64,000 bases of DNA from Rhizaria sp. SCN 62-66 (taxonomy: Eukaryota): contig MEDY01000147.1 of assembly GCA_001724265.1 (NCBI GenBank), positions 1-64,000 on the forward strand. The letters are read 5' to 3'. Shown here piece by piece: positions 6,222-43,953 of the stretch (position 1 is the first letter of the stretch; the number at the start of each line of letters is the position of its first letter). The position numbers and the translations under genes are program-made. The notes below the pieces were generated by a model that saw only the letters and a program-made list of their open reading frames with translations, had not been told where the DNA came from and ran no database searches.

Positions 6222-7928
6222 ATGAGCGCCCCTGTCTCTGCCGCCGTCTCCCCCGCAACCGTTTCACTTCCGCACCTTCTGTCAGCCTGTCTTTCCGTTG
6301 CCCGCCGCGCTGGCGACATCATCCGTGGTGTCTACGCGCAGGGCAAGCACGTGAGCTCGATGGTGGACAAGCGCGCGACGCCCGACGCGGAGCTGTGGGT
6401 GGACCCGCAGACCGAGGCCGACGTGCGCGCGCAAAACATGATCATCACGTCGCTCAAGGGCGTGTTCCCCGCGCTGCGAATCATCGGCGAGGAGGAAGAC
6501 GACTCACAGTCGGCGTTCCCCGTGGACATGGACACCTTCGTGCCCGACTTGACCTCCGTTCCCGCGTCCATCATCCTCCCTGCGCACCGCAGCACTGCCG
6601 CCAAAGCCGCTGCCGCTGCTTCGGCCGACTCCGCGCTCACCGCCGCCCTGGCGCTGCCCATGGCGCTGACGGAGCTGCCGCTGGAGGGTCTTACAGTGTG
6701 GGTGGACCCGCTCGACGGCACGCGCGAGTTCACGCTCGGCCACGTCGACAACGTCACGACACTCATCGGCATCTCCTACAAGGTACCTTAAACATCCAAT
6801 TTGACAACAAAGATAGCTCTCTGTCGCTGCAATTTTGCGTTGTACTATAATTTCATACTTTCTGTATACCTCGTCTTAGATTGGGATCGATATGCGATTG
6901 TCATGTGCTTCATATCTCAAGTCATAATATTTGTGCACTTTGTTGCAATTGCTGTTGATGTTTGCATTTGCGTAGGGTGCTGCGCTGGGCGGCGTCGTTC
7001 ACGCCCCGTTCCTGAACCAGACGGTTTACGGCGCCGTTGGCATGGGCGTCGGCAGCGAGGGCGGGCTTGCAGTCAGGGACGGCCTCTGGGCCACAGCTCT
7101 CTGCTCACAGTCACCCAGTGACAACAACAACAGCGAGGCTACGCAGTCATCGAAGGGCGACGCCGAGGGCGCCAGTGAGAGCGCGGAAGTGACTCTGGCG
7201 TGCTATAAGACGATTGCTGAGGGCCAGAGAAACGCGCTTCGCTCCATCGGCATCAACCCTGACTGCCTCCTCTCTGACGAAAGCGCAATCAACACGGAGA
7301 GTGCCTCTGACAGCTCTAAGACTGTCGTTGCTCCCGTCGTGCCGTCGGTCCCGTCCAGCTCGCTCACGGTCGTGACCTCGCGCAACCACATGACGCCGAC
7401 GCTGCGCGCCGTGCTCGACAGCCTCCAGATCGGCACCGTGCTTCAGGTACTTAAAACAACAGTATAACTTGTCGTTTTCTTTGATATCTCTGTAATATTG
7501 AAACTCTTTGTTATAAAGTCGTAACATGCGACAATTTTCAAGAACTATTCGTATTTTATATATTTGTTTCACATTGGTCGACTAACATCTCACCGTTCTA
7601 TGTGGCAATTCATACTTTCTGTCGTCGTTTGCGCATATCCCAGGTCGGCGGCGCCGGCTCCAAGGGCCTGCGTCTGCTGACCGGCGCGGCGCACGCCTAC
7701 GTTTTTCCGCAGGGCGGCACGAAGCGCTGGGACACGTGCGCCGTGCACGCGCTCGTCACGGCGCTGGGCGGCACGCTCACCGACGCCTACGGCGGCGCGC
7801 TGCGCTACGACTGCGACCGCGCCGGGGCGGGCAACCAGCGGGGTGTGCTGGCCACGCTCGGCTGCACGCACGGAGACTTGGTGCTCAGCGAGGAGACGCA
7901 GATCTACCGCGGGGAGGGCAAGCTCTAA
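6222..7928 (+). CDS. BPNT1: 3'(2'),5'-bisphosphate nucleotidase (inositol monophosphatase family), ~438 aa. Exons 6222-6782, 6976-7446, 7644-7928
   Basis: Motifs DPQTEAD, IIGEE, WVDPLDGT, GGVVHAPF, VVTSRNH, GGAGSK, KRWDTCA. Two phase-0 GTAC..AG introns. Ends in TAA. Confidence 0.88.
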
Positions 7929-8311
7929 GGGCAAGATATCCGTGTAGATTGACTGCGATCTTCTAAGTCTTTCCGCGTGCGATTCAGCGCACGAGTGAAG
8001 GATTATTGTTGTGCGTTTCTGAAGCGAAATACTTGCGTAGCATGAAATTTTGTTTTAGGTTTGTTATTTTTTCTTTTAGTTTGCTTTGTGACCGATGTTT
8101 GATAGCCTCCAGAGTGTTTTGAACACCTTTAGTTGATAATCAAGAACTGCACAGTGACTGATGATGCGTTCTCTCGTTTTACTTGAAAATAAACAATTTT
8201 ATACTTCTAATCTCAAAAGAAATCTATGTATTAAACAGTTTTAAAGATATATAATCATTTGATGTGTGAATATGCGTTGGGCTGCGACTGAAATCGTGTG
8301 ATCGACAGCAG

Positions 8312-11300
8312 TTAGTTGGCGCTCGTCGCATTTGCGTTTGTGTGGTTGTCAGTGACCGTGGGCACGAGTACCCCGTCTTCTTCCTCCTCTTCCCCTTCCT
8401 CAGCAACTGTGAGCAACTCCCCAGTAACGATAGTGGGCGCGACGCCGCTAGGGACTGTCAGCGCAGCGCTGTTGACGACTGTAGGCACAGAGCCGTCCGT
8501 GACGGCGCTCGTTACACCGCTGTTTGAAGCATTGTTATTGTTGCCGTTGTCGCTGATATCGTTACTTTTCGCTGAAGTTAGAGGGGAGACGCAGTCCGTC
8601 AGCATGATGTCATTGATAGCTGCAAGCATATCATCACTGTCGATATCAACATCAATCCCAGCACTCAGAGCGCCCATAGCGCCATTAACAGGATCGGCAC
8701 TTGCGATCGCATTCGAGGTAAGACTTGAGCTCGCAGCACTACTGGTGCCAGCAGCAGCACCAGCACTGCTGTTGTAGCTCGGAGTAGCCGCCGCAACGCC
8801 CACACCGCTCGCTGTGTTGTTCCAGTCGCTCGCACTAGTTCGAGTACTTAAAGCGGCAATCAGCGCGTTCTGGTCCATCTCGAGCGCCGCCGCCGCCGCG
8901 TCCCGCCGCCGCTGCTCGCTCCTGCGGTACTCCTCGACCTCCTCGCGCGCCTCCCGCGCCAGTTGCGTCAGCACCGCGCGCAGACGGCGGTCTTCGAACG
9001 CGCTGTCATCGTCGTCGTCATCGTCGTCGTCGCCGCCGTAGATGACACGGCTCTTGTCGGCGTTGACTGCGCTCTTGCTGTAGGCGCTACCGACGGTGTT
9101 GATGTTCTGGCGAGAGTGGGTGTAGGTGCCACGAACGGCAGCGGCGGCGGCGGCCGCGGCGCCAGTGCAAGTCGAGTCGGACTGGTGACGCGGGGGGTGG
9201 AGATACTTAGACTGGTCTAAGGGTCCCTGTCCGCGGTGGGGACAGCAGCAACAGCAGCGGCAGTGGCAGTGACAGTGCGAGAGACTGTGGCTGTCAGCGC
9301 AGCAAGAACAAGGTTTGGCACTGCTCATATCGCAGTGAGCGTGATCGCGATCGTGACTGTGAGCGCTTTCAGAGTGACTGTGCGCAGGCGCAGGTGCAGA
9401 TGCAGGTGCATGGTGGCCCTGATCACTCGCAGGGTGACTATGAGCAGCAGGGTGACCGTGAGCAGGAGCGGGGCGATGACCGTGGGGCGTGCTGCCGCCA
9501 GATTCACAGTCGTCAGCCTCGATCCCCAGCCTCTGCGCGGCCACGTTGCGACTGTGAGCAGTGGAGCGGGGGTGACCGTGAGCAGCAGAAACCGCGGCAG
9601 TGTTCAAAAAGCGAGCCAAAGTGACTGTGGGTAAAGCCAGCTCGCTTGCACCTACACCGGCGCCGGCGCTGTCCGTGATGTCAGTGAGACCAGTGAGATC
9701 ATTACTGCCAACGCTAGCGCCGCTGCGGGCGCTGAGGCCAGGTGCGAGTGCGTCAGCCGCCTCGCTATATGCGCTGTTGAAGCCGCCCACGCTATGACCG
9801 TGAACGGAGTGACCGCGAGCAGAGTGACCGTGAACGGAGTGACCGTGAGCACTAGGACCGCGATTGTAGCCGCCGGTGCTGTGAGCAGCGGAGATATAAC
9901 TGTGAGCGGAGGGATCGAAGAACTGAGGACGCGGGGTGATGAGGTCGTCAAAGTCCTCCCTGGGACTGCTGAGGTCGGCAGGAGAAGTACTACTGAGATC
10001 ACCCGACACGCTACTGACATCGCCACTGATATGAGCAGGACTGATGGTACACTCGTCTTCTTCCTCTTGACCGTCTTTGTCTTTGTGGTCATTGTTCTTA
10101 CTGTTGCTGTTATCATCATTCGCAGCGTCCTGTTGCTGCTTCTGCTGCTTCTCCGGATCGTGCGCTAACAAGCGTTGCAACAAAACATCCTGCGTCTCGT
10201 TTGCTTCCCCATGCCCCAACTCATACTCAATGTCGCCAATTTCGCCGAAGGGCTTCGGGGGGTACCGCGGCGTCGGCTCAGTCGCCAAGTAGGCGCGCTC
10301 GGCGGCTTGCCTTTGCACAAAGTCCTCGATGCTCATGTACGCGCTGTCGTTGAGAGTGCCATGATAAGCAACAGCGGAGGAGAGCTCAGCGTGAGGCAAG
10401 CTCGTGTTCAGAATACTACTGCTACTGCTACTGCCACTGTTGCTGTGAAGTTGATCGAGTGCGTTAGAGCGCCGCGAGTTGAGCCGTTGCAGCAGCTTTT
10501 GCCTCGCAGACAGAGGCGGCGACGACCTTGACGCTACCTGTGACTCTGACTGCAACTGCGGCAGCGGCTGCGGCAAGGAAAACATTGGCAGCGGCTGCGG
10601 CGGCGGCTGCGGCAGCGGCTGTAAGTGAGGCTCAGCCAAGACCCGCAACGCAGCTGCTGTAGCTGGCGCAAGCTTTTCTAGCACAGCGAAAGTCAAGCCG
10701 CTGGTGGTGCCTGCGTCTCTCGAAGTTAGACCGCCCTGGCGCGGGGAAGCAAATGCGCTGCCACGAGCCGACTTCTGCTCAAGACCCAAGTCACGGTCGC
10801 TGTGGCTATGGCCATTGGCAGCATGGTACTGTTGCTGATACTGTTGTTTGTGCTGTTTTTGGACAGGAACAGGCGGTTTGCGCAGTGACACACCTTCGAC
10901 AGCAACGCCAACGCCGCCGCCATCAGCGTTCTCATGCTCATGCTGACTGCGTCTCGCGTTATTGCCGTCATTGTCGTCGTTTTGACTCTGACCGTGGGTG
11001 ACCGTGGGCACAAACGCGACGCGGTTCTCCCAGCGGGCCCTGCCGCCGACGCTGCCGCCGCCGGCGCCCGCACTGCGGTTATGACTGTGGCTTCGGCTGC
11101 GGCTGCGGCTGAGATCATGCGACTGCAACTGCGGCTGTAGGAGTGAGTGCGTGTTGTTGCTATTCTTGGTTTTTGTGGCGCTGTGAGTGTTGGTCGTGCT
11201 CACATTCTTGTAGGTGGCGCCAAACCCGTCCGCGTAAGTGCCCGCCGCGCCAGTGTAAGGGTTGCTGCCGTGGACGCTGACGCCGGCGTAGACTGGAGGC

Positions 11301-11526: not shown

Positions 11527-11575
<49 letters not shown>

Positions 11576-14061: not shown

Positions 14062-14099
<38 letters not shown>

Positions 14100-14517: not shown

Positions 14518-14550
<33 letters not shown>

Positions 14551-17500
14551 ATCTCGGCGGCGGCGGCGACAACAGCGGGGGCGACAGCGACGGCGGCGGC
14601 GACGGTGACGACGATGATGGTGGTAGCGGCGGCGACAGCGACGGCGGCGGCGGTGGCGGCCGCGGCAATCGCGGCGGCGGTAGTCTTGCTGCCGGCCGCG
14701 CATGGCGCAGCGGGCAGAACCACGCCCGCAAGGCCGCCGCAGTCGAGGCCGAGCGCTCTCTGCTCGACCTGTCACTGTCTCAACACTTGGATGTGTACAG
14801 GACGCTCTGGCTGAGGCTGGGGCCGCCGGCGCGCGCGCCTGTGGTCACAGCCGCCGAGGTCGAGGCCGTTACGAAGGAAATTGCACAGGCTGAGTCTGCT
14901 GCTGCGGAAGCTGCGGCCGCCGAGGCCGCTGCTGCTGCTGCCGCTGCTGCAGCCGCTGCGAACGATGATGACGATGATAAGATCCCCGATCTCATTTCTG
15001 TTCACGACGAGCCTATCAATCAGAACAAAGACGCTGGCAGCAAGAGCTCGAGCGCGAGTCAGCTTCGTGGCTTTGTCACCAGCGCAACCGCCGCCGGCTC
15101 TCAGTCTCACGCGGTGGTCGCGAGCGCGGCGATTAATCCTTTCACTCCCGCGGCCGCTGCAGCGCCGTCGGCCGTGCGGTCGGCCCACGAGATCCGCGCC
15201 GCGCTAGAGAGCAAGCGTCGGCTGCTCAAGGCGCTGTCGGCGCGCGCGACGCTGATCGCGCTGGCGCCGCCGCTGCAGCTGCAGGCGACGCGGCTGGCGC
15301 TGCAGTCGTTTCAGCTGCTGCTGCTGCGGCTCGCGGGCGCGGCCGTCGCGGCAGGCGCGGCGCACCCCAGTCTGGTCGTCCGCGTGGGCCGCGTTTGGGC
15401 CAAGTTGCTGCAGTGGTGGCGCCAGACGGGCTGGGGCGCCGATGCGGACAACGCGGCCGTGGTGCTGGTGACGTACAAGCCCACGGTGGCTGAGCTGCGC
15501 AAGCAGGCTCGCTCGCGCCAGCTCGCCAGCGGCCGCGGCCTTGGAGGTCGCGACGGCGGCGTCACTCGCGGTGGCGATGGCGGCCTCGGTTATGACGACG
15601 CCGAAGACGACGACGGCGACTGCGAGCAGGACGACGACGGCGGCGACGGTGTGTGGTTCGACGACATGTCCACTTCGGACGACTCATCCTCCAACGAGTC
15701 GGCCGGCCCCCGCCACGGCTCGTCGTCGTCGTCGCTCTCGTCCGACAGTGAGCAAGACGCTCCAAAAGCCAATTTAGGTCAGACAACTCTCCCTGGCTTC
15801 AGTCGGTACAGTAAGCGTAGTTTAAACAGCCGCCGCCGCGCAAGCACCCGCAGTCGCGGCGATGTTGACAGCGACAGTGGCAGTGACGCCGTCGCCAGTG
15901 ACTGTGAGCGCGACGACGTTGGCCGCGACTTGGGTGAGGACCACGAGCAGCAGACGCGCATCAAGAGCATCTTCAAGTCGCACTTCGGCTCCTTTATCGT
16001 CTCCTCAGCGTACAAGGACACCAAGAAGAGCAACTCTGTCTCTCGCGCCCACTTCCAGTCGCAGCTCAGGTACATTCCCCGTCAAAGCGACGGCCGTTTC
16101 GTCGGAGTGCCCCGCGACAACCCCGCCAAGGACGCGCTCGACGGCAACCGGACATCGCGCCACGTGCGCCGCACTCGCCGCGCCGCCGCGCTGGCCCAGG
16201 CGACGGCGCGCGCGGGCGTCTCGGGCGTCGCGGCCACGGTCTTCCGCTACGTCGAGCAGCCCGCCGACGGCTCCGTGGCGGCCTCCGCGCAGCACCCGGA
16301 GCGCGCGGGCGCGCTCACCGGCGCGGCGCTGGCGAGCCGGCGCAAGAACGTGCCCATCCAGCTCGACCTGGGCATCACCACCGCAGTTGGCACCGGCGCC
16401 GCGGCCGCGCTGGGCGGCCAGACCGAGGAGGAGGCCGCCGCGGCGGTCGCGGCCGCGGCGGCGGAGGAGGCGGCGCGCAGGACCGCGGCCGAGATGCTGC
16501 CCACCAGCGCGAACTTTGTGCGGAAGAATCTGTGTCTCTCCACTGATGCAGGCAGCAGCGCGCGTACATCTGCCAAGGGTAAGGGTAAGGGCAAGAGCGC
16601 TAAGGGCGACGCCGACAGCACGGATACTGAGTCCGGCGCGAGCGCGAATGCGCGGAAGCTCGCCCGCTTGCTAGCGACGCGCGCAGACGACGATGACGGT
16701 CACGACGGGGACAGCGGTAGTGGCGTGAAGAGCCTCATAGTCAGCACCGCAGTGTCAGACAAGGTGGCCGCTTCAATTGCCATTGCGACCGCGATCAGGC
16801 TGTCTGCACAGCCGACTATCATCAATACCTCGAGTTCCTCTCACGCTAGCACCAGCACCAACAGCAGCAACAGCAGCAACGACTTTAGCAGCAGCAGTCG
16901 TAGAACGAGCGTCATCGCTGTGAACACGAATCCTGGCACTGTTCGTCCCATCATCGCTGAAGTCAAGCCGCCTGCCCTCCCCAGCCCCGCAGCGAGCAGG
17001 ATCAGCTTTGCTCCGGACGCCGCTCGCGCCCAGAGCGACAGCAGCAGCCCCAGTGACAGCGACGACGGCGCGCGCGTGAACAGGAACGCTCTTGTCCCGC
17101 GGGCTAGTGCCAAGAGAAAGCCGCGCCGCGTCACGGCCATCCTCACGACTCCGCAGGCCGTCGCGCCCGCGACCTCGTACCCGCTGCTGCCACTGCTGAC
17201 TCCCGCCCGCGTGGCCGCCGCGACGCTGCTGCTGCGCGCGCAGGCCGCGTCGCCGACCGCGGGCGTGCCGCTGGGCGCTCTATCGCAGCTGGCCGCCGTG
17301 CGCCGCATTGCTTCCCGCTCGCTTGCGCGCGCGGCCGCGGTTGCCGGCGCGGAGGCCGCGGCCGCCGCGGGCGTGACCGACGCCGCCGCGGTTGAGGCCG
17401 CTGCCAGGGCTGCGGCCGTGGCCGCCGTGGACGAGTCGCTCAAGCGCAAGCGCGGCCGCGGCGGCTGGGCGGCGCGCGGCGGCGGCGGCGGCGACGGCGG

Positions 17501-20500
17501 CGCGTACTCCGGACTCGATGCCGACACGGAGGCAGAGATGGAAGGGGACCCCGTGATGAAGGCCGCCGAGGAGGCTGCGAAAGCGACGGCGCGCGCGTTT
17601 CTCGCCAAGCAACGGCAGCAGAGTTCGAGTGACAATGACTCTAGCGACAGCGATGCGGCGTCGGAGGCGCGGGCGCGGGCTGAGGCTGAGAACAAGGCTC
17701 GGCTGCGGCGGCAACAGCAGAAGCAGCTGCGCCGCCGCCGCATGAAGCGCGGCTACGCTGAGAGCAGCAGCGGTGATAGCGATACTGACAGCAAGGGCGC
17801 GGCGGGCCGCGGCCGCGGGAAGTCAGCGCTCGAGAGTAGCAGCAGCGAGTCAGGACGCGACTACGACGACTTCGAAGCGAAGCCACTTAGGGGCGCTGCG
17901 AAGTCGGCAGGCAGCACTCGTGCGAGCACAAGTGTCAAGGCTAAGGCTGAGGCGAAGGCGGAGGCTCGACTTAAGAAGGCTGAGGCGAAGGCCAACAGTG
18001 CGATCAGCGAAGTGCGCACGGCCGCTGCTGCCGCCGCCGCTGCCGCTGTCACCTTGTCGGCTGAGACAGCGGCGGCCGGGTCTGTGCCGCCAGTGACGGA
18101 GGCGTTGGCTGGGAGTCGCGAGTTGAGCAAGATTATTGCGGCTATCGCCGCTGCCGCTTCGCGTGCCGCCTCTGTGTCGACGCGCACCAAGATCATCTTC
18201 ACTGCAGACGCGCAGAATAGCTACAACACTCAGGGCGACGACAACGACGACAGCGCCGCCGACGACATCGACGGCACGGTCCTCGATGCGCGCCTCTACC
18301 GCATGCGCCGCCGCCTGCGGATTGATTCGGTAGCCTCCGCGCCCGCGATGGACCCGGCCGAGGCGCTGCACGGCAAGGCGCCGTACCCCGTGCTGGTGAC
18401 GCAGCACCAGCGCCTGCCGGGGTATGTGCTGACCGCGGTGCAGCGCTACCTGGCGCGCACGCTCGTGCCCGCGGCCGCGCTCTACCTGCCGCGACACGCG
18501 CCGACCGTACGCGCGCTGAGCCGGCGGCAGCAGGAGTACGTGCTGCTGCGGAGCTCGGCCGTGGGACAGTTCATGCTCGTCATGAGCGGCGTGATGAAAG
18601 AGCTGCCCGTGCCGGAGTACTTGGAGCGCTACTTGCTTGCTCTCGAGGTGGAGCCGGAGAAGCAGCGCGGCGACCGGGGGATGAAGATGCAGGCCCGTTA
18701 TGAGAAGGAAAGGCTGCGGCGGAAGCAGTGGCGCCAGAAGGAGCGAGAGCGCAGGGCGCTTGCCCGCAGCAACAGCGCGAGCAACAGCACGAGCACGAAC
18801 GCCACTCAAGCTGACACTTCTTGTGACACTGCTTCTGCATATGTTGACTCGACTTCGTCTGTTAGCGCGACTGCAAGCGTTGGCGCTAGCGCTGCTAGCG
18901 TTAATCGTGTTTCGACTGTCGATGACGTGGACGACGGAGTCAGCTCGAGCCAATCTCAGCCTTTTCACCCTGACACGACAGGTGAAAACACAGAGATCAA
19001 TGTCCCTGAGCAAAAGCTTGTCTTTACCTGTCGCTGCCGCTGCGGCTTCTGCCATCCGCCCGGCACCACGATCCCCCCCGCGCAGGCGCTCGCCGTGGCG
19101 GCGGCGCGGCGCACTGCCGTCGCCAACGCCCGCGTCGCTGCGACCGCAAAACACGCCTTGGAGGCGGCGCGGCCCACGAAACTCAAGGCCCGCCGCGTGC
19201 GCACGTGGAAAGACGCGAGCAAGGCGCCTGCGAGCACGCTTAGAAACCCGTACAACGTGAGCACCAACAGCGAAGCGCTGCTGGAGGAGGCGCTCGCCGG
19301 CTTCAGCTCCGACGACGACGACGATAGTGACGAGACAGACGACATCAGCGGTGGCAGGAGCACGCGCAAGAAGCGCACTGCGGGCGCTGGCGTCCGTGTG
19401 AACAGCGGCGCGCTGCGCGTGCTGCAAGACGTGCAGGCCGCGACGGCCGACGAGCGCAAGGGCGTGTACACTGCGCTGCGCGCCGAGACGGCCAAGGTGG
19501 CGCGCGCGGTGCGTGCGTTGGCGGCCGAGTCTGCTGCGCTGGGCAGCAAGAGCAATGATAACGGCGGTAACGCTGACAAGAAGACCATCGACAGCAAAGA
19601 CAACGTTGGCGAGTCACTTGTCGGCTCTGAGGCTGCGACTAATGGACCCATTGTGAAGACCGAGACTCTTATGGGTCACGGTGTCAAGCAGGAGGCTGAG
19701 GCCGCTCACGGTCAGCCGTCTAATGCGGCTGTCTCTCGTCACTCGTTGAACCCGACCCGCGGGCGCTTCAGCCCTGTTGCGAAGAACAAAAAGAGTAAGA
19801 GCAAGAGCAGGGGCAAGAGTCTGGACTCAGACTCAGATTCTGAATCGAGCTCAATATCAGACTCTGAGTTGGATGTCAATACTGACAGTGTCTCTAGTAG
19901 CACCGCGACTGGCACCAAGCGCTCTCGTCTCTTCGGCTCGAACGTTCGTGCCGACAGCGCGCCTCCTGTCACAACCCTTCTCGGCCTTTCAGCGCAACAG
20001 CAGCAGTTTGACGCTGTGACCACGCGCCTTGAGACCGCTGCCCGTGCCGCCAGCTCGCTGTCCATTGCGCACTCCCGCCTACTTCTCAACAAAACCGTGG
20101 CCGAAAGCAGGACCCGCGCCTCACTCGAGATCAGGCGCCAGCGTGCGACCGCGCTCGACGTCGCGACTGCGGAGGCCGCGGCCGCAGCGGAGGCGGAGGC
20201 CACGCTGTGGCGGCGCGCGGCCGAGGAGGCCGCAAAGACTGATTCGCATAACTTGAACAACACTGCATTGACTGTCCTCAACGGCAGTAGCAGTAGTAGC
20301 GACGACGTCGACATTGATGACGAACGCGTTGACGGGATTGTGGACGTAGACGATGTTGACGATGGCGACGACGAGATGATGCACACGAGCCACAGTCTCA
20401 AGAGCAAAAGCGATCTTAAGAGGGCAAGGCGCGGTGCCGCTGCTGATGCAACAGCTGTTGCTGCTGCGGCCGCTGCGGTCGCCGCTGCTGCAAGCGGTGG

Positions 20501-29500: not shown

Positions 29501-32500
29501 CGACGCGGCTGACGCCGAGTCGGTTCTGGCCGCCACCGCCTCGCTGGCGCTGCTGTCCCCGATTCTGCTCTCGCAGCTGGCGCTCTTCACCACCGGCCCC
29601 GGAAATCTTGGCGCCGCGGTTGCGCACGCCGACGCGCGGCCCTGGGAGCGCGTGCTGCTGCGCCTCCTCTCGCCCGCCGCGCTCCCGGCCCCCGCACGCG
29701 AGCAGTTGCTGCGCACCTCGGTCGCGCTCAGGCTGCGCGCGCGGGCCGCCACCACCGAGGCCACGGCCGCTGCCGCGGCTGCGGCGGCGGCGGCGGGCGC
29801 GCGTCTGGCCAACACCGGCGTGCTGCCGGCGCTGTCGCGGAAGCGCGGCACGGTGCAGGGCAAGGCGAGGCTGCTCAGCGAGACTGCGGCGGCGCTGGGG
29901 GTCAACAGCATCCCTCCGTTCTTGGCGGAGGTCACGGAGACTGTTCCCGCTGCAAACGACAGCGGTTCTTCTTCTTCATCTGTGTCTGTGTCTGCGTCTG
30001 CGTCGGCTTCTGCTGGGGATGTGACTGTACGCCGGTCCGTCGTCACCGCGCAGTCGCTCGCGCGCGCCCGCAGCGAGGTTGCCCGCGTCCGCGCCGCCGT
30101 GACGCTGCTGCTGATGCTCGACAGCCACGTCCGCAGCAGCACATCGGCAGTTAACAATCCTGCCGCAGCGCGCGTGCCACTGTGGCTCGCCGCGGCACTA
30201 GCAGCCAACGCCAGCACCGCCGCTGCGCAGTCCCGCTCTCACACGCTTTCGCCAACTCACAATCGCGGTCTTTCCCATGCTCTCGGCCACTCCAGGAGGC
30301 CGAGCAGTGGAGTGACTGTCACCCCGGTCAGGTGGGTCGGCGTTGTGTCGGCCGCGACTGCTGCGGTTGCTGCCGGTACTGCTGCTATTGCAACCGCCAT
30401 GGCAACGCGCATCTCTAGCAGTGGCAATAATCACATCAGTTCCAGTGCTCGTGCATCCACGACTCATGAGTGCGCCTGCGACTCTGCACATGACAACAGC
30501 AAGACTGATGTTACTGACGTTTCTAATGTCGTTCTTGGTGCTGACACAGAGGCTATTGCTGTCGCTGGCACTCCCACGCGCGCTGCCGCCGCGCTGGCAC
30601 GGTTCCTTGAGTCGCTTTCTCTCGGCGCTGCGGTGCTTACCCCGTCGAGGCAGGCGCTCACACTGCCGCAGCGCGAGGCGCCGCTTTGGATCACGGTCAC
30701 TGCACCGAACGGCGGCGCGGCTAGCTCGGCTTCTGCAGTTGCAGCTGCGACGCATGCGACAATCAGGGTTGCTGGGAACAACGGTAATACGACGCCTGTC
30801 GCAATTCCTCATGGTAGCTGTGGAATGAGCAGTTCTGTGCTCACCGTAACACCGCCGCGCTGGGTATCTCTGCTCGCCGCTGCCACTGCCGCGTCTACTC
30901 GCACCACACAGACGATGCACAGCAACAGCGACAGCACAGCGACGGCTTCCAGTCCCAGCGCCAGTGCTCCCGTCCAGAGCGACGGCAGCGCGGCTCTGTC
31001 GCAGCGGGCTTTGGCGCTGGCGACGGGCCGCGCGTGCCTGACCCCCGCCGCGCTGTTGTCGCTGTCGCGCGACTCGCACCCGGAGCTGGCGGCGCCCAGC
31101 CAGGTGCTCAACGCGTTCGCGGCCACCCACAGCAGCGCCACTGCCGCGAACTCGAGCGCGCGCAATCGTGCCGTGGCCGCGGGCGACACCAGTGTCGATG
31201 CTCGTGAGACTGCTGGATCTGGCCTGAGTGTCGCTGCGGCGCGGAGGCGCGCTGCTCTTGCTCGCATCCGCGGCAACAACGGCGTTGGTGACAACAACAA
31301 AAACAGCTCGAATCCGAATACTGCTTTTACAGCTGTCCCTGCGATTGCGGCCGCAGATAGCTTCACAAAGAGCAGCAGCCCCACTCAGCCGTTGTTGCCG
31401 ACAACCCTGCGCGGGCTGCTCGGCTGCACCGGCGCCGTCGGCTCCCTTTCGTGGACGGTCACAACCGCCCTGCCCGCCGCCTCCGCTGCCGCTACTGCGG
31501 CCGCTGCTAACAGTGCGTCTGCTGTGGCACCGGCGGCTGCGCTCACGGTCACTCTGCTCACAGTCATCTCGGCGCTCGCAGCGCGCGCCAACGCCGCCAC
31601 TGCTGCTAAGTCTGCCGCTGTCGCCGCTACCGCCCACGCAACTGCAACTGCGACTGCTGCGGCTGAGGCTGCTGCGGCCGCAGAGCAGGCGCAGCTGCAA
31701 GCGCAGCAGGCGAAGGCGAGGCTCGGTCAGCGGCAGCAGCAGCTCGCGACTGCGGCGGCGGCAGAAACTGCTGCTGCGGCGGCTGTGAGTGCGGCTGCGA
31801 CCGCGAAGGCTGCTGCAACTGCTGCCGATGTTGCGAAGGCTGCTGCTGTTGCTGCTGCTGCCGCGCCCCAGCGTCATGAGTTATTGGGCCGCGGCCTAAC
31901 TTTGATGCACCTCGTCTTACCTTCACTAGCCCAAAGCGACGGTAACCGCAAGGGTCGTGGCAAGAGGAGTAAGAAGCAACAGAGCTCCAACAGCGGTGTT
32001 GCGATGATTGACGACAATGACAACGACGACGCCAGCGCCAGCGCAAGCTCGAGTTCGAGTGCTAGTGCCCCTGTTGTGAGTGGAGCTGAGTGGGCTGTGG
32101 GCGTGCTTCTCAACGCTTGCGCCCACACCCACTCTTCTTACGCTCGCAGTCGAAATATCTCTGCAGCCGCCGTGACCGTGGGCAGCGTTGCGCTCGCAGT
32201 CGCCGCTCTCTTCTCTCTCTGCCACCGCTGGTGTTCCCGCCTCTTGCCGCACCTCGCGTCCGCCGCCGCCACCGCCGCCGCTGCGGCCACTCTGACGCTG
32301 CGGCTGTCGCCGGTCGCGGCGGAGCGCGCGCGCGGACTCGCACTGCTGCAATCATTCGCTCTTTCTGACAAGAAGGTAGGCCGCGTTGTGTCCACTTACT
32401 CACGCAACGATACTTTGTTCAAGCTCTTCTTGTCGCACTCTAAGTGCACGCATTGTAAGGGTACTGTGTCTAAGGACAAGCTTACTGCGGTGGTGACTGT

Positions 32501-35500
32501 GGGCAGTGTGTTGACTGGCTCTGTGACTGCACACGCGGCGACTGTCGCGACTGTGTCGGCACTCGCGGCGGCTATCTCTGCTGTCAACACTGACAGTAAC
32601 AACGACAGCACCCATACTCGTCCATTGTCACTTCTTTCTCCTCTCTGTCCGTCGTCCACACATGGTTCTAGCAACAAGACTGTGCTTAAGACCACGGCTC
32701 CTGCCTCTCAGTCGCAATTGCTGTCGCAGTGCCCCAGCGTGCTGCGCCCCCCGTCCCGCCTGCCTCTCTTCCCCGCCGCCTCCGTGAGCGGCGGCGGCCT
32801 CTCGCCGGCGGCGTCCCTGCTCTTCTCCGAACAGTACCCCCTGCAGTCGCTGCTGCTTTCGCGCGCCCCCGTCGCAGTGCGCTACCTCACGCTTCTGCGC
32901 CGCGCCCTCAAGCTCGCAGCGATTCCCGCGCCCGGCAGGCCCGCGCTGCTGCCCGCCGCTGCCGCCGCCGCTGCGGCCGCCGCGGCCGAGGCCGAGGCCG
33001 GCGGCACGGGCTGGGCCGGCGATGCCTCCAGCGCCCCCGACGGCGGCGCTGGCGGCCGCGTCAGGGTCGGCGTGGTGGCCGAGACGCCGCCGCCACCGCT
33101 GCTGCTGCTGGTGCACGGGCTTGTGCAGACGGTGCTGCGGGCGATCGTGGACGAGGCCGATATCAACGCCGCCGTAACGGCCGCCGCTAACACTGCGATT
33201 TCTCCTGCTACAGACAAGAGCACAGCCACAAGTGACGGTCAACGCTCCAGCTCAAGTGCCAGTGCCAGCGCGAGCTCTAGCTCGAGTGCAAACGCTGGTG
33301 CTGGTGCTGCTGGGGCAGCGGGCGGCAACGCCCGTCTCTCTGGCCTCCTGGAGACCGCAGCTGCGGTGAGCGCGAGCATCGACCGCATTGAGGACGCGGC
33401 CGCCAAGGCCACGCGCGGCGTGTTCGTGCCCCCACGAAAGCCTCAGCCGCTGCTCGCCTTTGAGCCGGGGCTCGCTATTCTCTCGCGCAGCAATGCAACA
33501 TCAGCAAACGTGAGCAAGAGTGCGAGCGCAAGCTTTGCTACTGCTGCAACTGTTCCTTCCACTGACTCTTTGAGCAGTGTCGCGAGCGACACCGCGAACA
33601 CGAGGACTCGCGAGAGGCGTCCGTACCGCGCTATATTGGACTCCTTTTTGGCGTCGCTGCCCTCCGACCAGGCCGCCGCCGCAAGCACGCCCCTGCTGCG
33701 CGCCGCCGCCTCGGCTGCCGTTTCCCGCACTCAGGCTCACAGCACCAACGCAGGCGCCTACAGCGGTGGCGTCACGCACGCGCACCCCGCGGCAACCGCC
33801 CGCGCCGCCGCCGTCGCCGCCGCCGCCTCTGCGGCCGCAGCCGGCGGGGGCGCCGCCGTGCGCGACGCCGCGCTGGTCGCCGCACTGGCCACCGTGCCGG
33901 CGCCTCTGGCGACGCGCGAGCACCAGAGCGTGCACGAGCGGATTTTCTCCCCGCTCACTGCGAATGTCATCGAGACCGACGGCAGCGCGGGTCACGGCGC
34001 GACTCAGAGCGACGTGCACCGGGCGATCGCGCGGTGGGGCGACGATTACAGCGCGATTGCCGCGAAGTCCGCCTATAGCAGTGCCCAGAAAAGCCGTGCT
34101 GTCAAGTCAGAGGAGTCTAATAGTGGTGATGCCTCAGTCAAGCGCGAGTCCATTCACGTTGCTGACGTGACCGATGCGTGCCAGTCGCTTCCGGCCCTGT
34201 CCGCGGCCGTTTTCGCCGCCTCGGCCGCCGCGTCCCTCTCGCAGCCGCTGTCGGCGCGCCACCAGCTCGCGCTGCTCCCGACGTCCGTCGCCGGCGCCGC
34301 CGCGACCGCCGCACTGAGCCACTTCTCGAACCACGGCGACGCGCCTCTGCCCGCCAGCACCGAGGGCGCGGCGCTGCGCCACGCGCTGCATCCGCTGGAC
34401 CTGCTCACGGCCTCGTTGCCCGCCGCGCCGCTGTCGGTGGCCATGCAGCAGCCGCAGCGCCGCGGGCTCCAGGCGACTGGTCCGTGCGCGCCTGGGCCCT
34501 TCGCGGCCGCGCGCGCGGTGTCGCTCGCCGCTGCCGCCGCCGCCGGGCTGGGAGACGGCGCGCCGACTGAGACCGGGGCTGTCGCTGCGGCCGCGGAGGT
34601 GGCGGGAGCGGCCGCAGCAGAGGCGGCACGGGGCGCGCAGCGGGCGCTGGCGTCGGCGCTGACCAAGGTTGTGTCCACAGCGCACGCGACGCGTATCGCT
34701 AGCTCTGAGAGTAACGCCGTCAGCGCGCGCGTGAGGGCGGAGCAGGCTGCGAACATTGCGGCCACGACCGCGTTCACAGTCAACCCCACCATCGTTCTGT
34801 CCCACGAGCCGCTCACCGCGCCCCAGTCCGAGCAGCTCGCCGTGTCCGCCGCCGAGGCCGCCGCAATCGCGCGGCGCCGCGTGGAGCGGCTCGACCTATC
34901 CGGGCTGCGCAAGGAGCGCGCGCACGAGCTGCTGCGGCTTGTGCTGTCCCGCGGCGCGATGCGGCGCGCAGCCGTGCGGCTACAGCTGACGCCGGAGGCC
35001 GAAGGCCAGGCCGCAGTGGCGCGTGTTGTCGCGGAGACATGGCAGGCGCAGTCGCAGACCATTACCCCTGGTGTTGGTGAGTCTGGCCCTAGCAACGCGA
35101 TGCTGTTCTCATCAATCCCGCAGGCTGACTTGCCGTTCGGCGTCACACTGACGCAGTTTGCACGTCTAGCATCTCTCCTCCGTCCTCAGAAGCAAGAACA
35201 TCAGCAGCAGGAGGAGCAGCAGCCACCGAGTGTGATGTCTGACTCGGACTCGAACACTTCATCCGCCTCGGCTGTAGCTGCTGACCCCAGTGTATCTTCT
35301 GTCGATGTGACTGTGGCCGCCAGCGGTTCCGACCCTCGTCTCTGGCGCGCGCTCCAAGTCGACTTCGAGCACTCGCTTCTCGAGCAACTCAAAGTTAAAC
35401 CGCTGCTTATCCGCCTTCTCGGCGCACAAAGGACGGCATTTGCAGAGCCAACAGCTGCTGACGGCTACGACGGCAACGATTTTGACAACGACGCTGAGGG

Positions 35501-37105: not shown

Positions 37106-39274
37106 TTAGAAGTTGGCCTTGACGGAGCGCTTGCTGCCGGTGGCGGCGACTGCGGCCTTCTTGACCATCGCGCGCACCTCCTCCTCATCTTCGCTCTCGT
37201 CGTCATCGCCGCTATCGGCGGCGCGGCGCTTGCTCTTGCCCGTAGCAGCAGGCTTGTCATTGTCGTCGTCGTCAAAGTCACTGTCATCGTTCTCGTAGCG
37301 CGACTCGGAGAGGTCGCCATCCTCGTCCTCGTCGTCGAACTCGCCCTCACCGTCCTCCTCCGCGTCCTCCTCGTCGTCGACGTCGCCGTACTGGCCGCGG
37401 GCCGCAGCGGTGGCGCCACCCGCAGCGGCCACGGCGAGCTTGAGCGCAGTCGCGATCTCGCTGTCGCCGCCCCAGGCCGCCGCCGCCGCCGCCGCCGCCG
37501 CCGCGTCAGTGGACCCCGCCTGCTGCTGCTGCTGCTGTTGCTGCTGCGGGTTCTGCGCGCCGACGTATCCCTGCGCGGCGTCGGCGGCGGCGAGGAGCAG
37601 GTCGAGCTCGCCCTTGACGCGCGCGCACTCGTCGCTGACAGCGATCTCGGCCTTGAGCCGGCTCTGCAGCCGCCACAGCAGCTCGTCCACGGCCACCGAC
37701 TGGCGCAGCACGGGCGTGTACAGGTCAAGCACGACGCCCAGCACGTCCGCGAGCAGCGCCGAGACGCGAGGCAGCGCGAGGTGCTTGCTGACGAAGAGCA
37801 GCACTGTCTCGAGCGAGGCGTCGTCGCGGCCGCCCAGCGCGACGCCCAGCCCGCCGCGGCGCAGCAGCTCCTCCACCACGGTGGCGACGACGTTGACGTC
37901 GCCCGTCGCCAGCGCTGCGTCGAGCGCCGCGCCGTACGCGAAGGAGCGCAGGTGCGCGTCGAAGGCAGCCAGGTGGCGCTTGCGGGTGTGCTCTACGACG
38001 AGGTCGTCCTCATCCGCGCGGTGCGACGTGCCGCGGTTGAAGTGCGCGTAGACCGAGGAGCGCAGCCGCTGCGGCAGCGGCGCCGGGTTGGCGGCCGCGC
38101 GCTGCTCGAGCGTGGGCCGGTAGCGCAGCGACAGCGTGCCGTCCGCGTGGCCGACGGCGAGCAGCGAGCCGCAGGGCGAGAGCGCGATCGAGAGCAGCGG
38201 CGAGGAGTAGCGGATGGCGTGCACGGGGCGGTACGTGCGCGTGTCGTAGATCTTGACGACGCCGTCGAGCGACGCGACGAGCAGGCGCGCGCCCTGGGGG
38301 TCGACGGCGAGCGCCGTCACCGTCTTCTGCTGCCAGGGCAGCACGGCGACTGGCTGCGACCCCGCGGGCGCGGTCACGTCCCAGACCTTAACCGTGGTGT
38401 CGCCGGCCGTGTAGAGCAGCGCGCCCGAGGGGTGCACGGCGATAGCCTGGATGGGCGCGCCATGGTTGACCGTGAGCGCGGCCGTCCGCACCTTGACCGC
38501 GCCGGCGACGGAACTCAAGCCGCCGGGGCCGGTCGAGTTGTTGCGCTGGCCGCGGGCGGCGCGGCGGGCGATGGCCTCGACGTCCTTGGTCGTGTCCGTG
38601 GGCGCGAGCGGCTCGGCGGCAGCGTCGGCGGCGAGCGCGGCGTCGGTGGCGGCGCGCGCGGCCTCAGCGGCGAGCGCGATGGCGTCGGCGGCGTCGAACA
38701 TGCGCGCAGTGTGGTCATAGGAACCGGTGAAGAAGACCGTCTCGCTGACCGGCGAGGGCACCAGGCAGCGCACCGAGTCCGTGTGCGCCGTGAAGACCAC
38801 GATCTCGGACTCGGTCGGCAGGTCGAAGAGGCGCACCGTCTTGTCGTTGGACGCCGACAGGAGTCGGGTCCCGTCGCCGAGGAAGGCAACGGCGTTGACC
38901 GCGCTCTGGTGCGTGGGAAACGTACGCAGAATGGTGCGGGAGCCGGTGTCGAAGACGTTGATAAGGCCGTCCTCGGAGCCGCCCGCGAGCATCTTGCCGT
39001 CGGGCCGGTACGCCACAGAGTTGACGGGCGTGTGGAAGCGTGAGATGGTCTTGCGAACCGTCTGCGTCGCCTTGTTGTAGGTAGTAATGCGCGTCGAGGC
39101 CGCAATAGCAAGCTCTTGGGACCCAGAGGCGCAGAAAGACATCGCGGCAACGCGGCCGGTGTGACGCTCGCGCGTCTTGACACTGTACTTGGCCCAGTAG
39201 CGCGACTCGGGCGTGGTCTTGGGCGCGCCGGACGTGGGCGGGCGCTGCACCACCGTGGGGCGGTACTGGCTCAT
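37106..39274 (-). CDS. UTP15: U3 snoRNA-associated protein 15 (WD40 repeats plus UTP15 C-terminal domain), 722 aa, intronless
   Basis: N-terminal ESRYWAKY, WD40 repeats (RKTISRF..YRPDGKMLAGG, TGSYDHT, NHGAPI), C-terminal FDAHLRSFAYGAALD..VVEELLRRGGL..LGGRDD..L. Acidic tail. Ends in TAA. Confidence 0.92.
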   Translation of the reverse strand: MSQYRPTVVQRPPTSGAPKTTPESRYWAKYSVKTRERHTGRVAAMSFCASGSQELAIAASTRITTYNKATQTVRKTISRFHTPVNSVAYRPDGKMLAGGSEDGLINVFDTGSRTILRTFPTHQSAVNAVAFLGDGTRLLSASNDKTVRLFDLPTESEIVVFTAHTDSVRCLVPSPVSETVFFTGSYDHTARMFDAADAIALAAEAARAATDAALAADAAAEPLAPTDTTKDVEAIARRAARGQRNNSTGPGGLSSVAGAVKVRTAALTVNHGAPIQAIAVHPSGALLYTAGDTTVKVWDVTAPAGSQPVAVLPWQQKTVTALAVDPQGARLLVASLDGVVKIYDTRTYRPVHAIRYSSPLLSIALSPCGSLLAVGHADGTLSLRYRPTLEQRAAANPAPLPQRLRSSVYAHFNRGTSHRADEDDLVVEHTRKRHLAAFDAHLRSFAYGAALDAALATGDVNVVATVVEELLRRGGLGVALGGRDDASLETVLLFVSKHLALPRVSALLADVLGVVLDLYTPVLRQSVAVDELLWRLQSRLKAEIAVSDECARVKGELDLLLAAADAAQGYVGAQNPQQQQQQQQQAGSTDAAAAAAAAAAWGGDSEIATALKLAVAAAGGATAAARGQYGDVDDEEDAEEDGEGEFDDEDEDGDLSESRYENDDSDFDDDDNDKPAATGKSKRRAADSGDDDESEDEEEVRAMVKKAAVAATGSKRSVKANF

Positions 39275-41268: not shown

Positions 41269-41799
41269 GCTAGCTGCAGAGTAAAAACAGGCGTGGAGGA
41301 AACAAAACACAGCGGTGTAAGGTGGCGAATCAGAAACAAATGATGTGGAGTTGGTCGCGGGCGGTGGGAGGCTGGCGCGCGACGCGGAGGGTTGCGCACA
41401 TCGACACGCAGAGCCACAGAGCGCTTAGCGCGGCCACGACGCACGGCTTGCCACACCGTCAACCAAACATCGCAATACTACATCTTAGTAAATTTTCGCA
41501 TAAATTCGTTATTCCATTTTGTACCACACCAAAGCACGACATCTAGCGCCCTAGATACCCCCTGACTCGCTCGCGCTTCTCGCTTTGACTTCGGTCTGCC
41601 GTCCATCCCGCCCGCCACGAGACTTTTTGCGAACCGTGGAAACTTCGAGCGAACGCCCGCCACAGCAAAGTGGTGCGAGCTGGGGTGGCATGATCAAAAG
41701 TGTAATTCGAGCTCTTTCATTTGATCGTCAACAGCGCTTATATACCATTATGTCATTAAATTACTTATATTACATTCTTATTTTTGTTTATCGTTGCAG

Positions 41800-43953
41800 A
41801 TGAGTGAGTCTAAAGATGGTTTATCGCGCCTCAAAGTCTACGCCTTCGACTGGTACGTCATCATCGTCACCATTTTCTTTCCGAACACGTCCCATTCTTC
41901 GCCCGAAGCGTTCTTACGTTTTAAGCACTATTCGCACTATTGCCTGCTCTTTGTTGCGCTTACCTACAGGGACGATAACCTCGTCTACATGCCAACGACG
42001 ATGATTCTGTACCGCCGCCCGCAGGACCCCTCCGCGGCGCGGCCCTCAGACCTGTCCTACGGCGGGCAGTACGACTCCGTTAACTACGACATGAGCGGCG
42101 TGGGCGATTTCTGGGAGCCGTACCAGGTTTCTACTGCCGAGTTTGCTTCTCTGCGCCGTCTCCCGGCCTCGGAGCGCACGTTTACGTACAACGCGTCGTC
42201 GTTTCAGTACTTCGAGTCGCCCACCCGCTTCACGCACGACGTGCACACTGCGCTCACATCACCTTATATCGCTGATTCCAACGCTAACAACGCTTCTGCT
42301 GTAACAGCGAGTGGTGACCCCGCGCCCGGCACGTCTGCGTTTGCCGCGCTGTCGGTGTCGACCGCGATCGAGGTCATCATGCGCCGCTTTCCCGCTCTAG
42401 GCCCGTCGTTCCCCAAGCTCTGCACCGCGGTGCTCTCGGCGGCCCCTTTGCTAGTCATCACCGCGCGCGGCCAGCCCGCGGCGCGGCTGATGCAGGGGCT
42501 GTGTTTCCTGCTCTCTGTCACGCTGCTCACCCACCCGGTCGCCGCAGCGCAGGCCGCCGCGGCCGCCAAAGCTGCGGGATATGGTAACAGCAACAGGACT
42601 CACAGTGACACGAATGACGATGACGATGATGACAGTGACGGGTTGACTGCGTGGCTTGCCTCCGTTGCCACCACCGCCCCGGCCTCTCTTGCCCACGGTC
42701 ATCCCTCCACTTTCGCCGCGCCCCTCCCGCGGCCCGTTGCCCGCTACCTCCGCGTGCAGCACCTCTTCGCGGTCAGCTCGCCCGAGTACAGGGCCGTGGC
42801 GGGCCGCATGGAGGCCGTGGCGGCCGCGCTGGGCCATTACTTGCCCGCACACGGCGGCGGCTCACAACACTTAGAGTCTCAGGAGCAGTCACAGTCTCGG
42901 TCTGAGTCTCAGTCTCAGTCCGAGTCGGAATCGTTGTCGTCGCTGCTGCGCCAGGCCGAAGGCAGCGGGATGTCAGTGACTGTGTGCGCGGACACAGGCA
43001 CGGGTTCTTGTACCGCTAGCAACAACTGCACAATTGCTACGAGTGACTGTGAGCTGATTGTGAAACAGTTGTCAAACTTGAAGCTTCACTTTCACTTTGA
43101 AATTCACACAGCTCTCAGTAACGGCGCTGCAACTGCTGCCACTGGTAGTTCCGCTGCCAGCGGCGGCAGCGCTGTGATGGGGGCTGAGGCGCTGGATGCG
43201 CATTACTCCCCCGAAAAGGGCAAGTGCGTCGCCATTCTGTGGTTTACAGCGCTGTTTCTCTCGCGCCAGGGCATCGCTCTGTGGACCAAGGCCGCCACCG
43301 CTGCTGTCGCTAGCAACAACAGCAGCAGCAGCAGCAAGACCAAGACTGACTGTGAGCAGAGTGAGAGTGACCGTGAGCAGCATGAGGGCGACCCGCTGCG
43401 CGTTCTGTCCCCGACGTGGGCCCTCGCGCCCGCGCTGTTACACAGGCTCGTCACGACTGCTCGCAACAACCGCGAGAGCAATAGCAAGAGCAACTGCAGC
43501 AACAGCATGCACACCAGTGTTGAGAATGTGAGTCGGGAGAGTATTGTTTCACCGATGACTGCACTCGCCTCAGCCCTCACTCTCAACCACAGATTTGCTG
43601 CTGATGCGGCCTCGAACACCGGTGCTGTAACTGTCTCCCCTGCAGTGACCGTGACCGTGAGCACGGCCTCCCCTCTTGCTGCGAATGTGAGCGCAACGAC
43701 GGGAAGCCATGGCTTACAGGCACCGTCGCAGCCGCATGTCCGGTCCCAGTCGCAGTCGTTGCAGCTACCGATCAGCTCGCTGTCCCTGTCCATCTCGATG
43801 GGCTTCTCGGACGATGATCCGAAGAACCTGACCGCAATCGAGTCGCTTTTCGCGCGCACGCTGGCGGCGCAGAGCCCTCACGTGCGCTTCGTGCTCTACA
43901 ACGCCTCGGTCAAGGGCGAGACACCGGTTAAGGTCGCGGTGAAGCAAGACTGA
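41800..43953 (+). CDS. HAD-superfamily hydrolase of the FDWDDN type, ~678 aa with low-complexity inserts. Exons 41800-41852 and 41970-43953; a short upstream exon is possible
   Basis: Removing the 117-nt GTACGT...TACAG intron restores KVYAFDWDDNLVYMPT (HAD motif I, DxD). Later VSTAEFA, GPSF..L, VITARG (motif II) and GFSDDDPKN (motif IV). Ends in TGA. Confidence 0.75.
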   Translation: MSESKDGLSRLKVYAFDWYVIIVTIFFPNTSHSSPEAFLRFKHYSHYCLLFVALTYRDDNLVYMPTTMILYRRPQDPSAARPSDLSYGGQYDSVNYDMSGVGDFWEPYQVSTAEFASLRRLPASERTFTYNASSFQYFESPTRFTHDVHTALTSPYIADSNANNASAVTASGDPAPGTSAFAALSVSTAIEVIMRRFPALGPSFPKLCTAVLSAAPLLVITARGQPAARLMQGLCFLLSVTLLTHPVAAAQAAAAAKAAGYGNSNRTHSDTNDDDDDDSDGLTAWLASVATTAPASLAHGHPSTFAAPLPRPVARYLRVQHLFAVSSPEYRAVAGRMEAVAAALGHYLPAHGGGSQHLESQEQSQSRSESQSQSESESLSSLLRQAEGSGMSVTVCADTGTGSCTASNNCTIATSDCELIVKQLSNLKLHFHFEIHTALSNGAATAATGSSAASGGSAVMGAEALDAHYSPEKGKCVAILWFTALFLSRQGIALWTKAATAAVASNNSSSSSKTKTDCEQSESDREQHEGDPLRVLSPTWALAPALLHRLVTTARNNRESNSKSNCSNSMHTSVENVSRESIVSPMTALASALTLNHRFAADAASNTGAVTVSPAVTVTVSTASPLAANVSATTGSHGLQAPSQPHVRSQSQSLQLPISSLSLSISMGFSDDDPKNLTAIESLFARTLAAQSPHVRFVLYNASVKGETPVKVAVKQD

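Follow-up and report, generated by a model that had tools for sequence, protein, structure and literature searches.

The closest documented parallel to the coding repeat described here is probably found in Eimeria, for which passages of Reid et al. 2014 (PMC4199364) describe a CAG repeat that is preferentially coding and specifies up to five amino acids depending on how it is read. We analysed a 64,000-nucleotide stretch of DNA from Rhizaria sp. SCN 62-66 (contig MEDY01000147.1, positions 1 to 64,000; hereafter the window), through whose long open reading frames (ORFs) the 12-base word GTGACYGTGAGC is scattered on both strands. Like the CAG and telomere-like repeats presented in those passages on Eimeria (PMC4199364), this word is a DNA-level, coding-biased feature whose encoded residues depend on frame and strand and which apparently lengthens proteins. 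The Eimeria repeats differ in being tandem runs of 3 or 7 bases that give homopolymers, according to the same passages (PMC4199364). GTGACYGTGAGC, in contrast, is a non-tandem heterodimer of 12 bases, present singly or as two to four loosely spaced copies.

Partial likenesses to other systems can also be drawn. Cryptic simplicity, a concept reportedly due to Tautz, Trick and Dover in 1986, predicts locally favoured motifs that differ between regions. The window resembles such sequences in its scrambled, imperfect repeats that locally exceed what composition predicts, in the reuse of codons at the repeat period and in the involvement of unconserved protein regions, but differs in that the same 12-mer is common to five ORFs in five frames. 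The shared-core minisatellites (reportedly Jeffreys 1985) and the 13-mer hotspot motif of PRDM9 (reportedly Myers 2008) are comparable in that unrelated loci with periods of 15, 18, 21, 24 and 30 bp share one core of 10-15 bp; unlike minisatellites, the arrays found here have 2-4 units, lie in frame inside exons and are known from sequence alone. HIP1, the DNA uptake sequences and uptake signal sequences (DUS/USS) and Chi are genome-wide prokaryotic words, kept at orthologous positions or in the form of dialects, for which a reading machinery is known or suspected. With these words of 8-12 bases GTGACYGTGAGC shares a strong excess within genes, irrespective of strand and in whatever frame is tolerated; however, unlike HIP1, which is a palindrome, it is not palindromic, and its likeness to iterated words was seen in one window only.

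A total of 12 exact copies of GTGACYGTGAGC, seven with C (C form) and five with T (T form) at its one free pyrimidine (Y), were found on the two strands of the window, at exactly the coordinates and in the orientations listed in an initial annotation of this DNA (Table 1). Copies with one mismatch number 24 and copies with two mismatches 51, compared to 3.05 and 21.3 expected under a Markov-5 model (20 simulations); the seven 11/12 matches reported in the initial annotation all exist, although three were off by one base and the true total is 24 rather than seven (about 3 expected). The conserved unit extends slightly beyond 12 bases, to about 15 bp, and can roughly be written R-GTGACYGTGAGC-R-S. 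Among the 23 copies of the 10-mer GACYGTGAGC, T precedes the core at position -1 in 19 and G is found at -2 in 14, while the 3′ side presents A or G followed mostly by G or C; base frequencies around these 23 copies show no conservation past about -3 to +2, the farther flanks being unrelated. Besides the free Y, 10-11 positions of the word are near-invariant. Its two halves also have a preferred order, as GTGACY-GTGAGC occurs 12 times and GTGAGC-GTGACN twice, with one copy of the homodimer GTGACCGTGACC and none of the homodimer GTGAGCGTGAGC; each of the remaining 18 GTGA..GTGA.. words in the window occurs once. A hexanucleotide microsatellite was rejected on the basis of this order bias (12 vs 2), of the near lack of homodimers (1 and 0) and of the fact that the word is usually a single unit; at the 12 sites, Tandem Repeats Finder (TRF) reported no period-6 array of a GTGACY/GTGAGC unit.

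The initial annotation had proposed a test of enrichment against codon-preserving and Markov nulls and, within the window, the excess holds under every null built. Compared to the 12 exact copies seen, 0.01 were expected from dinucleotide shuffles (100 shuffles), 0.10 from a Markov-3 and 0.45 from a Markov-5 model (20 simulations each), 0.034 from codon shuffling within the 13 long ORFs (44.9 kb), 0.15 from a dicodon Markov model of the long ORFs, and 0.10 and 0.21 from local shuffles of 30 and 10 codons, respectively. A synonymous shuffle that keeps every protein intact gave an expectation of 0.63 and a maximum of 4 in 500 shuffles. Because the word had been picked after being seen, a look-elsewhere control was also run, with a strict filter that leaves out near-triplet GC-rich words; the C form alone, at seven loci, is the best non-triplet-like exact 12-mer in the data, compared to at most five loci for the best such word in 100 synonymous shuffles and at most six in 100 local shuffles. 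When all 10-mers were ranked against both nulls, the top words were nearly all sub-words of GTGACYGTGAGC, at 10-18 times expectation. The frame-independent excess over composition- and codon-aware nulls by which iterated words of the DUS/USS, Chi or HIP1 type are recognised is thus present, for this window only.

The five translations of the exact copies given in the initial annotation are correct: AH(G/S)H is encoded by four copies, SD(C/R)E by three, VTVS and ALTVT by two each, and CSQS by one. Relative to the host ORF, five exact copies are sense and seven antisense; when copies with at most one mismatch are included, the 33 copies inside ORFs comprise 14 sense and 19 antisense copies in five phases. 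The sixth phase of GTGACYGTGAGC would read TGA, while the five other phases are free of stops and all occupied. Several of the codons that the word imposes are minority codons in these GC-rich ORFs (GGT 0.15, CGT 0.10, AGT 0.15, GCT 0.20 and TCA 0.07, with a third-position GC content, GC3, of 0.75). The motif codons were nonetheless used for 2/4 occurrences of VTVS (0.10 expected from codon usage), 4/7 occurrences of AH(G/S)H (0.13 expected), 5/8 of D(R/C)E (1.24 expected), 7/14 of LTV (0.73 expected) and 1/40 of S(Q/R)S (0.09 expected). Because all five stop-free frames and both strands are used and the motif codons are over-used in each frame, the signal, or the process that generates GTGACYGTGAGC, acts on the DNA and not on the peptide, as the initial annotation had proposed; with the proteins held fixed, the expectation of 0.63 copies compares to 12 seen.

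The alternative that peptide repeats (His-X-His, Thr/Val alternation, acidic Ser/Asp stretches) and codon bias coincide to give the word draws on the enrichment of the five peptides over residue shuffles (VTVS, 4 vs 0.5; AH(G/S)H, 7 vs 0.3; LTV, 14 vs 5.4), on the presence of 4/12 exact copies in the His-rich region of a single protein (P0092) and on the finding that both orientations yield T/V peptides in the giant ORF, since GTGAC and its complement both read Val-Thr. However, an enrichment over residue shuffles is also expected if the DNA word creates those peptides, the word uses minority codons, and the synonymous shuffle, in which the peptides are retained, falls far short of the copies seen; without the His-rich gene and its four copies, eight exact copies remain, compared to 0.25 expected. 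This coincidence is largely excluded and we regard it as very unlikely.

A near copy (one mismatch) lies 6-24 bp from seven of the 12 exact copies, while the remaining five are solitary. All eight spacings between adjacent copies (21, 18, 24, 15, 15, 15, 21 and 6) are multiples of 3, which, by our own arithmetic, free phases would produce only a few times in 10,000. TRF arrays of 2-4 units each surround GTGACYGTGAGC at 9429-9465 (period 18), 9795-9851 (period 15/30, with 96% at period 30) and 43343-43393 (period 21). The near copies, the spacings in multiples of 3 and the TRF arrays point to in-frame local duplication of the copies.

The word forms part of a broader dipeptide (six-base) periodicity that pervades the coding DNA. 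Base identity within the long ORFs is higher at lag 6 (0.384) than at lag 3 (0.346) and higher at lag 12 than at lag 9; correspondingly, residues two codons apart (lag 2) are identical more often (0.158) than neighbouring ones (lag 1, 0.132), and reuse of the same codon peaks at a lag of 2 codons (1.30x). Imperfect hexamer dimers (1140) exceed the numbers in synonymous (698) and local (544) shuffles by 1.6-2.1x, and 68 non-triplet 12-mers, many of them hexamer dimers, are found at three or more loci, compared to about 11 expected. Several other hexamer dimers are present at 3-5 loci each, and a second family, (GTGCGA)2 or (A)GTGCGAGTGC(GA), is present at eight loci, on both strands, in different ORFs and in any frame, at about 9-10x the codon-aware expectation. 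The initial annotation had held that equal enrichment of all similar hexamer-dimer words would indicate generic slippage; such words are indeed enriched, though not equally, and GTGACYGTGAGC is by far the most enriched, being 2-4x commoner than any other similar word. Among the ORFs, the conserved ones (IFT-like, UTP15 and CDC45 C-terminal) show the smallest period-6 excess, and exact copies of GTGACYGTGAGC are confined to ORFs in which identity at lag 6 exceeds that at lag 3 by at least 0.03; none was found in the two IFT-like ORFs, the UTP15 ORF or the CDC45 C-terminal ORF. Ordinary GCC, CAG and GAC runs are also present in the window, and GTGACYGTGAGC is not one of them. Two further repetitive stretches were observed. 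Directly 3′ of the P0091 stop, positions 43951-43985 carry GAGACTG/GTGAGACTG-like units related to GTGACYGTGAGC and to an (AGTCTC)n array at 42875-42926. Positions 53384-55258 are strongly repetitive (27-, 93- and 111-bp periods, with a top TRF score of 327) and contain long ORFs on both strands with a weak collagen-like Pfam match.

Table 1. Copies of GTGACYGTGAGC, its variants and the second word family in the window.
Feature	Position	Strand	Context and reading
Exact copy, T form	7103..7114	-	antisense in ORF 6976-7464, CSQS
Exact copy, T form	9353..9364	+	antisense in ORF 8315-11728 (P0092), AHSH
1-mismatch copy	9374..9385	+	21 bp after 9353, AHSH
1-mismatch copy	9434..9445	+	18 bp before 9452, AHSH; TRF period 18 at 9429-9465
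Exact copy, C form	9452..9463	+	AHGH
1-mismatch copy	9548..9559	+	24 bp before 9572
Exact copy, C form	9572..9583	+	AHGH
1-mismatch copy	9809..9820	+	in period-15/30 array 9795-9851, ARGH
1-mismatch copy	9824..9835	+	in array 9795-9851, VHGH
Exact copy, C form	9839..9850	+	in array 9795-9851, AHGH
Exact copy, T form	15898..15909	+	sense in ORF 12474-20780, SDCE
Exact copy, T form	24774..24785	+	sense in ORF 20784-36755, VTVS
Exact copy, C form	24863..24874	-	antisense in ORF 20784-36755, ALTVT; inverted relative to 24774, start 89 bp on
Exact copy, C form	31541..31552	-	antisense, ALTVT
1-mismatch copy	31556..31567	-	15 bp from 31541, LLTVI
Exact copy, T form	43043..43054	+	sense in ORF 41725-43950 (P0091), SDCE; opposite gap in relatives
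1-mismatch copy	43346..43357	+	21 bp before 43367, TDCE; TRF period 21 at 43343-43393
Exact copy, C form	43367..43378	+	SDRE
1-mismatch copy	43645..43656	+	6-bp overlap with 43651 copy, VTVT
Exact copy, C form	43651..43662	+	VTVS; unchanged in contig of another study's run (X4)
1-mismatch copy	2213..2224	-	sense in Spo11-like ORF
1-mismatch copy	3986..3997	-	outside long ORFs
1-mismatch copy	19704..19715	-	antisense, AHGQ
1-mismatch copy	21558..21569	+	sense, LTVS
1-mismatch copy	23636..23647	-	antisense, TLTVT
1-mismatch copy	26355..26366	+	sense, VTVS
1-mismatch copy	30689..30700	-	antisense, ITVT
1-mismatch copy	38466..38477	+	antisense in UTP15 gene
1-mismatch copy	42976..42987	+	P0091, VTVC
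1-mismatch copy	55593..55604	-	outside long ORFs
1-mismatch copy	62862..62873	+	outside long ORFs
Variant GTGACCGTGGGC	8352..8363	+	antisense in P0092, different frame, VPTVT
Variant GTGACCGTGGGC	10998..11009	+	VPTVT
Variant GTGACCGTGGGC	32172..32183	+	VTVG
Variant GTGACTGTGGGC	32493..32504	+	VTVG
Variant GTGACCGTGGGC	60098..60109	+	IFT-like ORF, VTVG
(A)GTGCGAGTGC(GA) loci	939, 2410, 4655, 4985-5000, 9742, 21222-21239, 26685, 36174		

The exact copies lie in five long ORFs, rather than in the four unrelated genes of the initial annotation, and two of these ORFs may belong to one gene. Counted from stop to stop, ORFs 12474-20780 and 20784-36755 have 2,769 and 5,324 codons, respectively; they share one frame, are parted only by a TAG at 20781-20783, and no in-frame ATG follows until about 75 codons downstream. 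Together they may represent a gene of some 8,100 codons whose internal stop is read through, erroneous or polymorphic. Contigs from polyA-RNA libraries cover parts of the giant ORF, which is no proof of its transcription. No Pfam match was obtained for the four ORFs that hold nearly all copies. The claim that copies sit mostly in low-complexity inserts stands in part: local amino-acid entropy is below the median at 8/12 sites, but three sites are in the top quarter. Residues about 620-830 of P0092 (8315-11728, minus strand) are His- and Cys-rich, with AHGH/AHSH/VHGHS repeats followed by CHCHCRCCCCC, and this stretch, which has no Pfam match, looks like a metal-binding low-complexity region; a homologue search with residues 430-610 of P0092 returned P0092 itself only. 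For P0091, a full HMMER search gave 15 matches, the best relative being P0094 (43% identical), while another homologue search found P0091 alone. In the protein alignment, the three exact copies in P0091 lie opposite gaps or in columns that are not conserved among relatives, and none of the five peptides was found in P0094 (43% identical, compared as protein only). The copies therefore look lineage-specific and located in tolerant places.

Taken together, we tentatively read GTGACYGTGAGC as the commonest word of a slippage-driven, cryptically simple class of 6-base-periodic coding repeats that populate fast-evolving coding DNA, a reading to which we assign a probability of about 0.45. It joins the DNA-level nature of the signal, the in-frame local duplication and the background period-6 process to a mechanism that we infer, in which short in-frame units of 6-30 bp would slip during replication or be exchanged unequally, so that words would arise and multiply locally, and selection would act only against copies that disrupt a folded domain or, in one of the six frames, bring in a stop. 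Copies would then accumulate irrespective of strand and of which of the five open frames they occupy, wherever long proteins are poorly conserved, and would lengthen these proteins. Among the three mechanisms considered in the initial annotation, the footprint of a repair or slippage process is the best fit.

Several observations weigh against this reading. Slippage accounts for the local arrays, but not for the seeding of five ORFs with the same order-specific 12-mer, and the word, being order-specific and mostly a single unit, is no hexamer array. A purely mutational process should seed non-coding DNA as well; however, no exact copy is found in the 19.1 kb outside long ORFs, compared to 12 in the 44.9 kb inside (p about 0.014 under equal density, by our own arithmetic). 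In paired copies, the cores are better preserved (72/84 identities) than the spacers (21/45), a comparison biased by the choice of pairs by their cores. No insertions or deletions at motif sites were found among contigs of four sequencing runs, in which cover was shown for 43645-43662 only; that array is identical in a contig of run X4. Cover was seen for 1/6 exact sites in 24500-44499, contig placement being noisy, with many low-complexity cross-matches. In favour of the slippage reading, in-frame length differences do exist in this population: single contigs show +9 behind 27727 and +3 behind 28467 (run X4) and -3 at 35844 (run X7), all in low-complexity parts of the giant ORF and none at a motif site. 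All of these statistics rest on one 64-kb window. As a separate observation, run X4 differs from the window at about 1% of bases over 26.2-29.7 kb, which suggests a second strain or haplotype.

The recurrence of the same order-specific 12-mer in unrelated genes, together with its tight definition and its coding bias, keeps two further explanations alive. According to the first, GTGACYGTGAGC would be a DNA site recognised by a chromatin, replication or recombination factor (e.g., a hotspot-specifying protein) and kept wherever the protein tolerates it, and its arrays would be homotypic site clusters or by-products of breaks at the site. In favour of such a site, the word is tightly defined, with near-invariance at 10-11 positions beside the free Y, and has preferred flanking bases; it is also order-specific, lies in both orientations without bias, uses minority codons and is far more abundant than other words of its class, and the better-kept core is also what constraint on the core would produce. 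However, spacings that are all multiples of 3 are not required by independent placement, exact copies are lacking from non-ORF DNA, the usual place of regulatory sites, the peptides are missing at 3/3 exact sites in the one relative compared (distant, at 43% identity, and protein only), and other hexamer-dimer words behave alike at lower counts. We consider a recognised site doubtful, but take it seriously. A bolder form of the idea, in which the word would be a eukaryotic counterpart of Chi, DUS or the PRDM9 motif, that is, a genome-wide, orientation-free signal of 12-15 bp for a sequence-specific DNA-handling protein, e.g., one directing breaks or recombination, with the activity of the site itself making the in-frame duplications, appears unlikely.

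The second explanation invokes short insertions templated by a single source, be it an abundant RNA or DNA, a template of the telomerase kind or neighbouring sequence reached by template switching during repair, followed by local duplication. It would account for the same unit of about 15 bp with unrelated flanks at every locus, for the roughly even numbers in which the five open frames are hit, for the confinement of all 12 exact copies to the 36.6 kb between 7103 and 43662, the other 27.4 kb of the window being free of them, and for the location of the copy at 43043 inside a segment that is gapped in all three aligned relatives of P0091. However, the window contains no source sequence, and a search of the whole window against Rfam gave 0 matches at the gathering threshold; captured fragments are usually variable-ended, whereas this unit has a fixed length, regional clustering cannot be separated from gene type, and the window contains no telomere to compare. 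Templated insertion thus seems quite improbable.

That the word stems from misassembly or contamination, hides a splice signal or marks the end of a mobile element is largely excluded and, in our view, extremely unlikely. The window is a metagenome assembly; however, a contig from another study carries 43483-44399 unchanged, including the copies at 43645-43662. Adapter contamination was tentatively rejected against known adapter sequences. GTGAGC looks like a generic 5′ splice site; however, each of the three introns examined has GTACGT as its donor, the word is found in both orientations with respect to genes (7/12 exact copies being antisense), and its sites are spanned by ORFs. A transposon, miniature inverted-repeat transposable element (MITE) or introner remnant was rejected as well, since similarity ends by about 15 bp and copies therefore share no element body or terminal inverted repeats. 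Of the mechanisms in the initial annotation, a HIP1-like methylation word is weak and was rejected, as GTGACYGTGAGC is no palindrome and CpG is not depleted (observed/expected 1.20). A literature search with the four 12-mers as strings gave, among the papers listed, no title suggesting a genomic repeat, and the titles and abstracts listed appear to concern mostly antibodies or nanobodies; these 12-mers are a common coding of the antibody VTVSS segment. Prokaryote genomes, when scanned for a pair of cores within 31 bp, gave at least 120 loci, all of them local tandem arrays; among the loci listed, one had a further core copy, about 1.9 kb away, and none resembled this eukaryote. Viral contigs, scanned likewise, yielded 12 single loci, and both scans are uninformative on the present organism. 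Some foreign contigs with side matches of about 22 nt at 31538-31565 carry more copies of GCTCACGGTC(AC), a mere hint at further occurrences of the word in those samples.

The window itself is eukaryotic, as Pfam matches include Spo11, SGF29, UTP15, CDC45 and IFT121/122-like proteins. Its DNA is present in bioreactor and wastewater metagenome runs. The region is GC-rich and intron-poor, with short, AT-rich introns that start with GTACGT; of the three examined, one is backed by contig joints and two were deduced from breaks in ORFs. The former is a 183-nt AT-rich intron (40673-40855, minus strand, GTACGT...AG) with contig joints in two runs, and belongs to a minus-strand gene between UTP15 and P0091. 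The nearest relative of UTP15 is 62% identical and the next ones at most 34%, suggesting that the lineage is poorly sampled. A metagenome scan with UTP15 for DNA of relatives gave one unrelated WD40 match (27%), the scan being blurred by low-complexity patterns.

Frame-blind, DNA-level repeats in coding sequence are known as simple tandem runs, as in Eimeria, and a 12-base heterodimer common to unrelated genes and occupying five frames represents a sharper case. It shows that a DNA process, and not protein function, determines some of the sequence in these very long and unconserved proteins, and provides, with GTGACYGTGAGC, a marker by which this process could be tracked across strains. Should a protein read the word, eukaryotic exons would hold a rare case of an iterated recognition word; if it is a signal of the Chi, DUS or PRDM9 kind, a recognition word would write itself into exons and drive the growth of giant low-complexity proteins. 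Should no protein read it, the word would neatly illustrate how the proteins of a little-known eukaryote are shaped by slippage together with a stop-codon filter.

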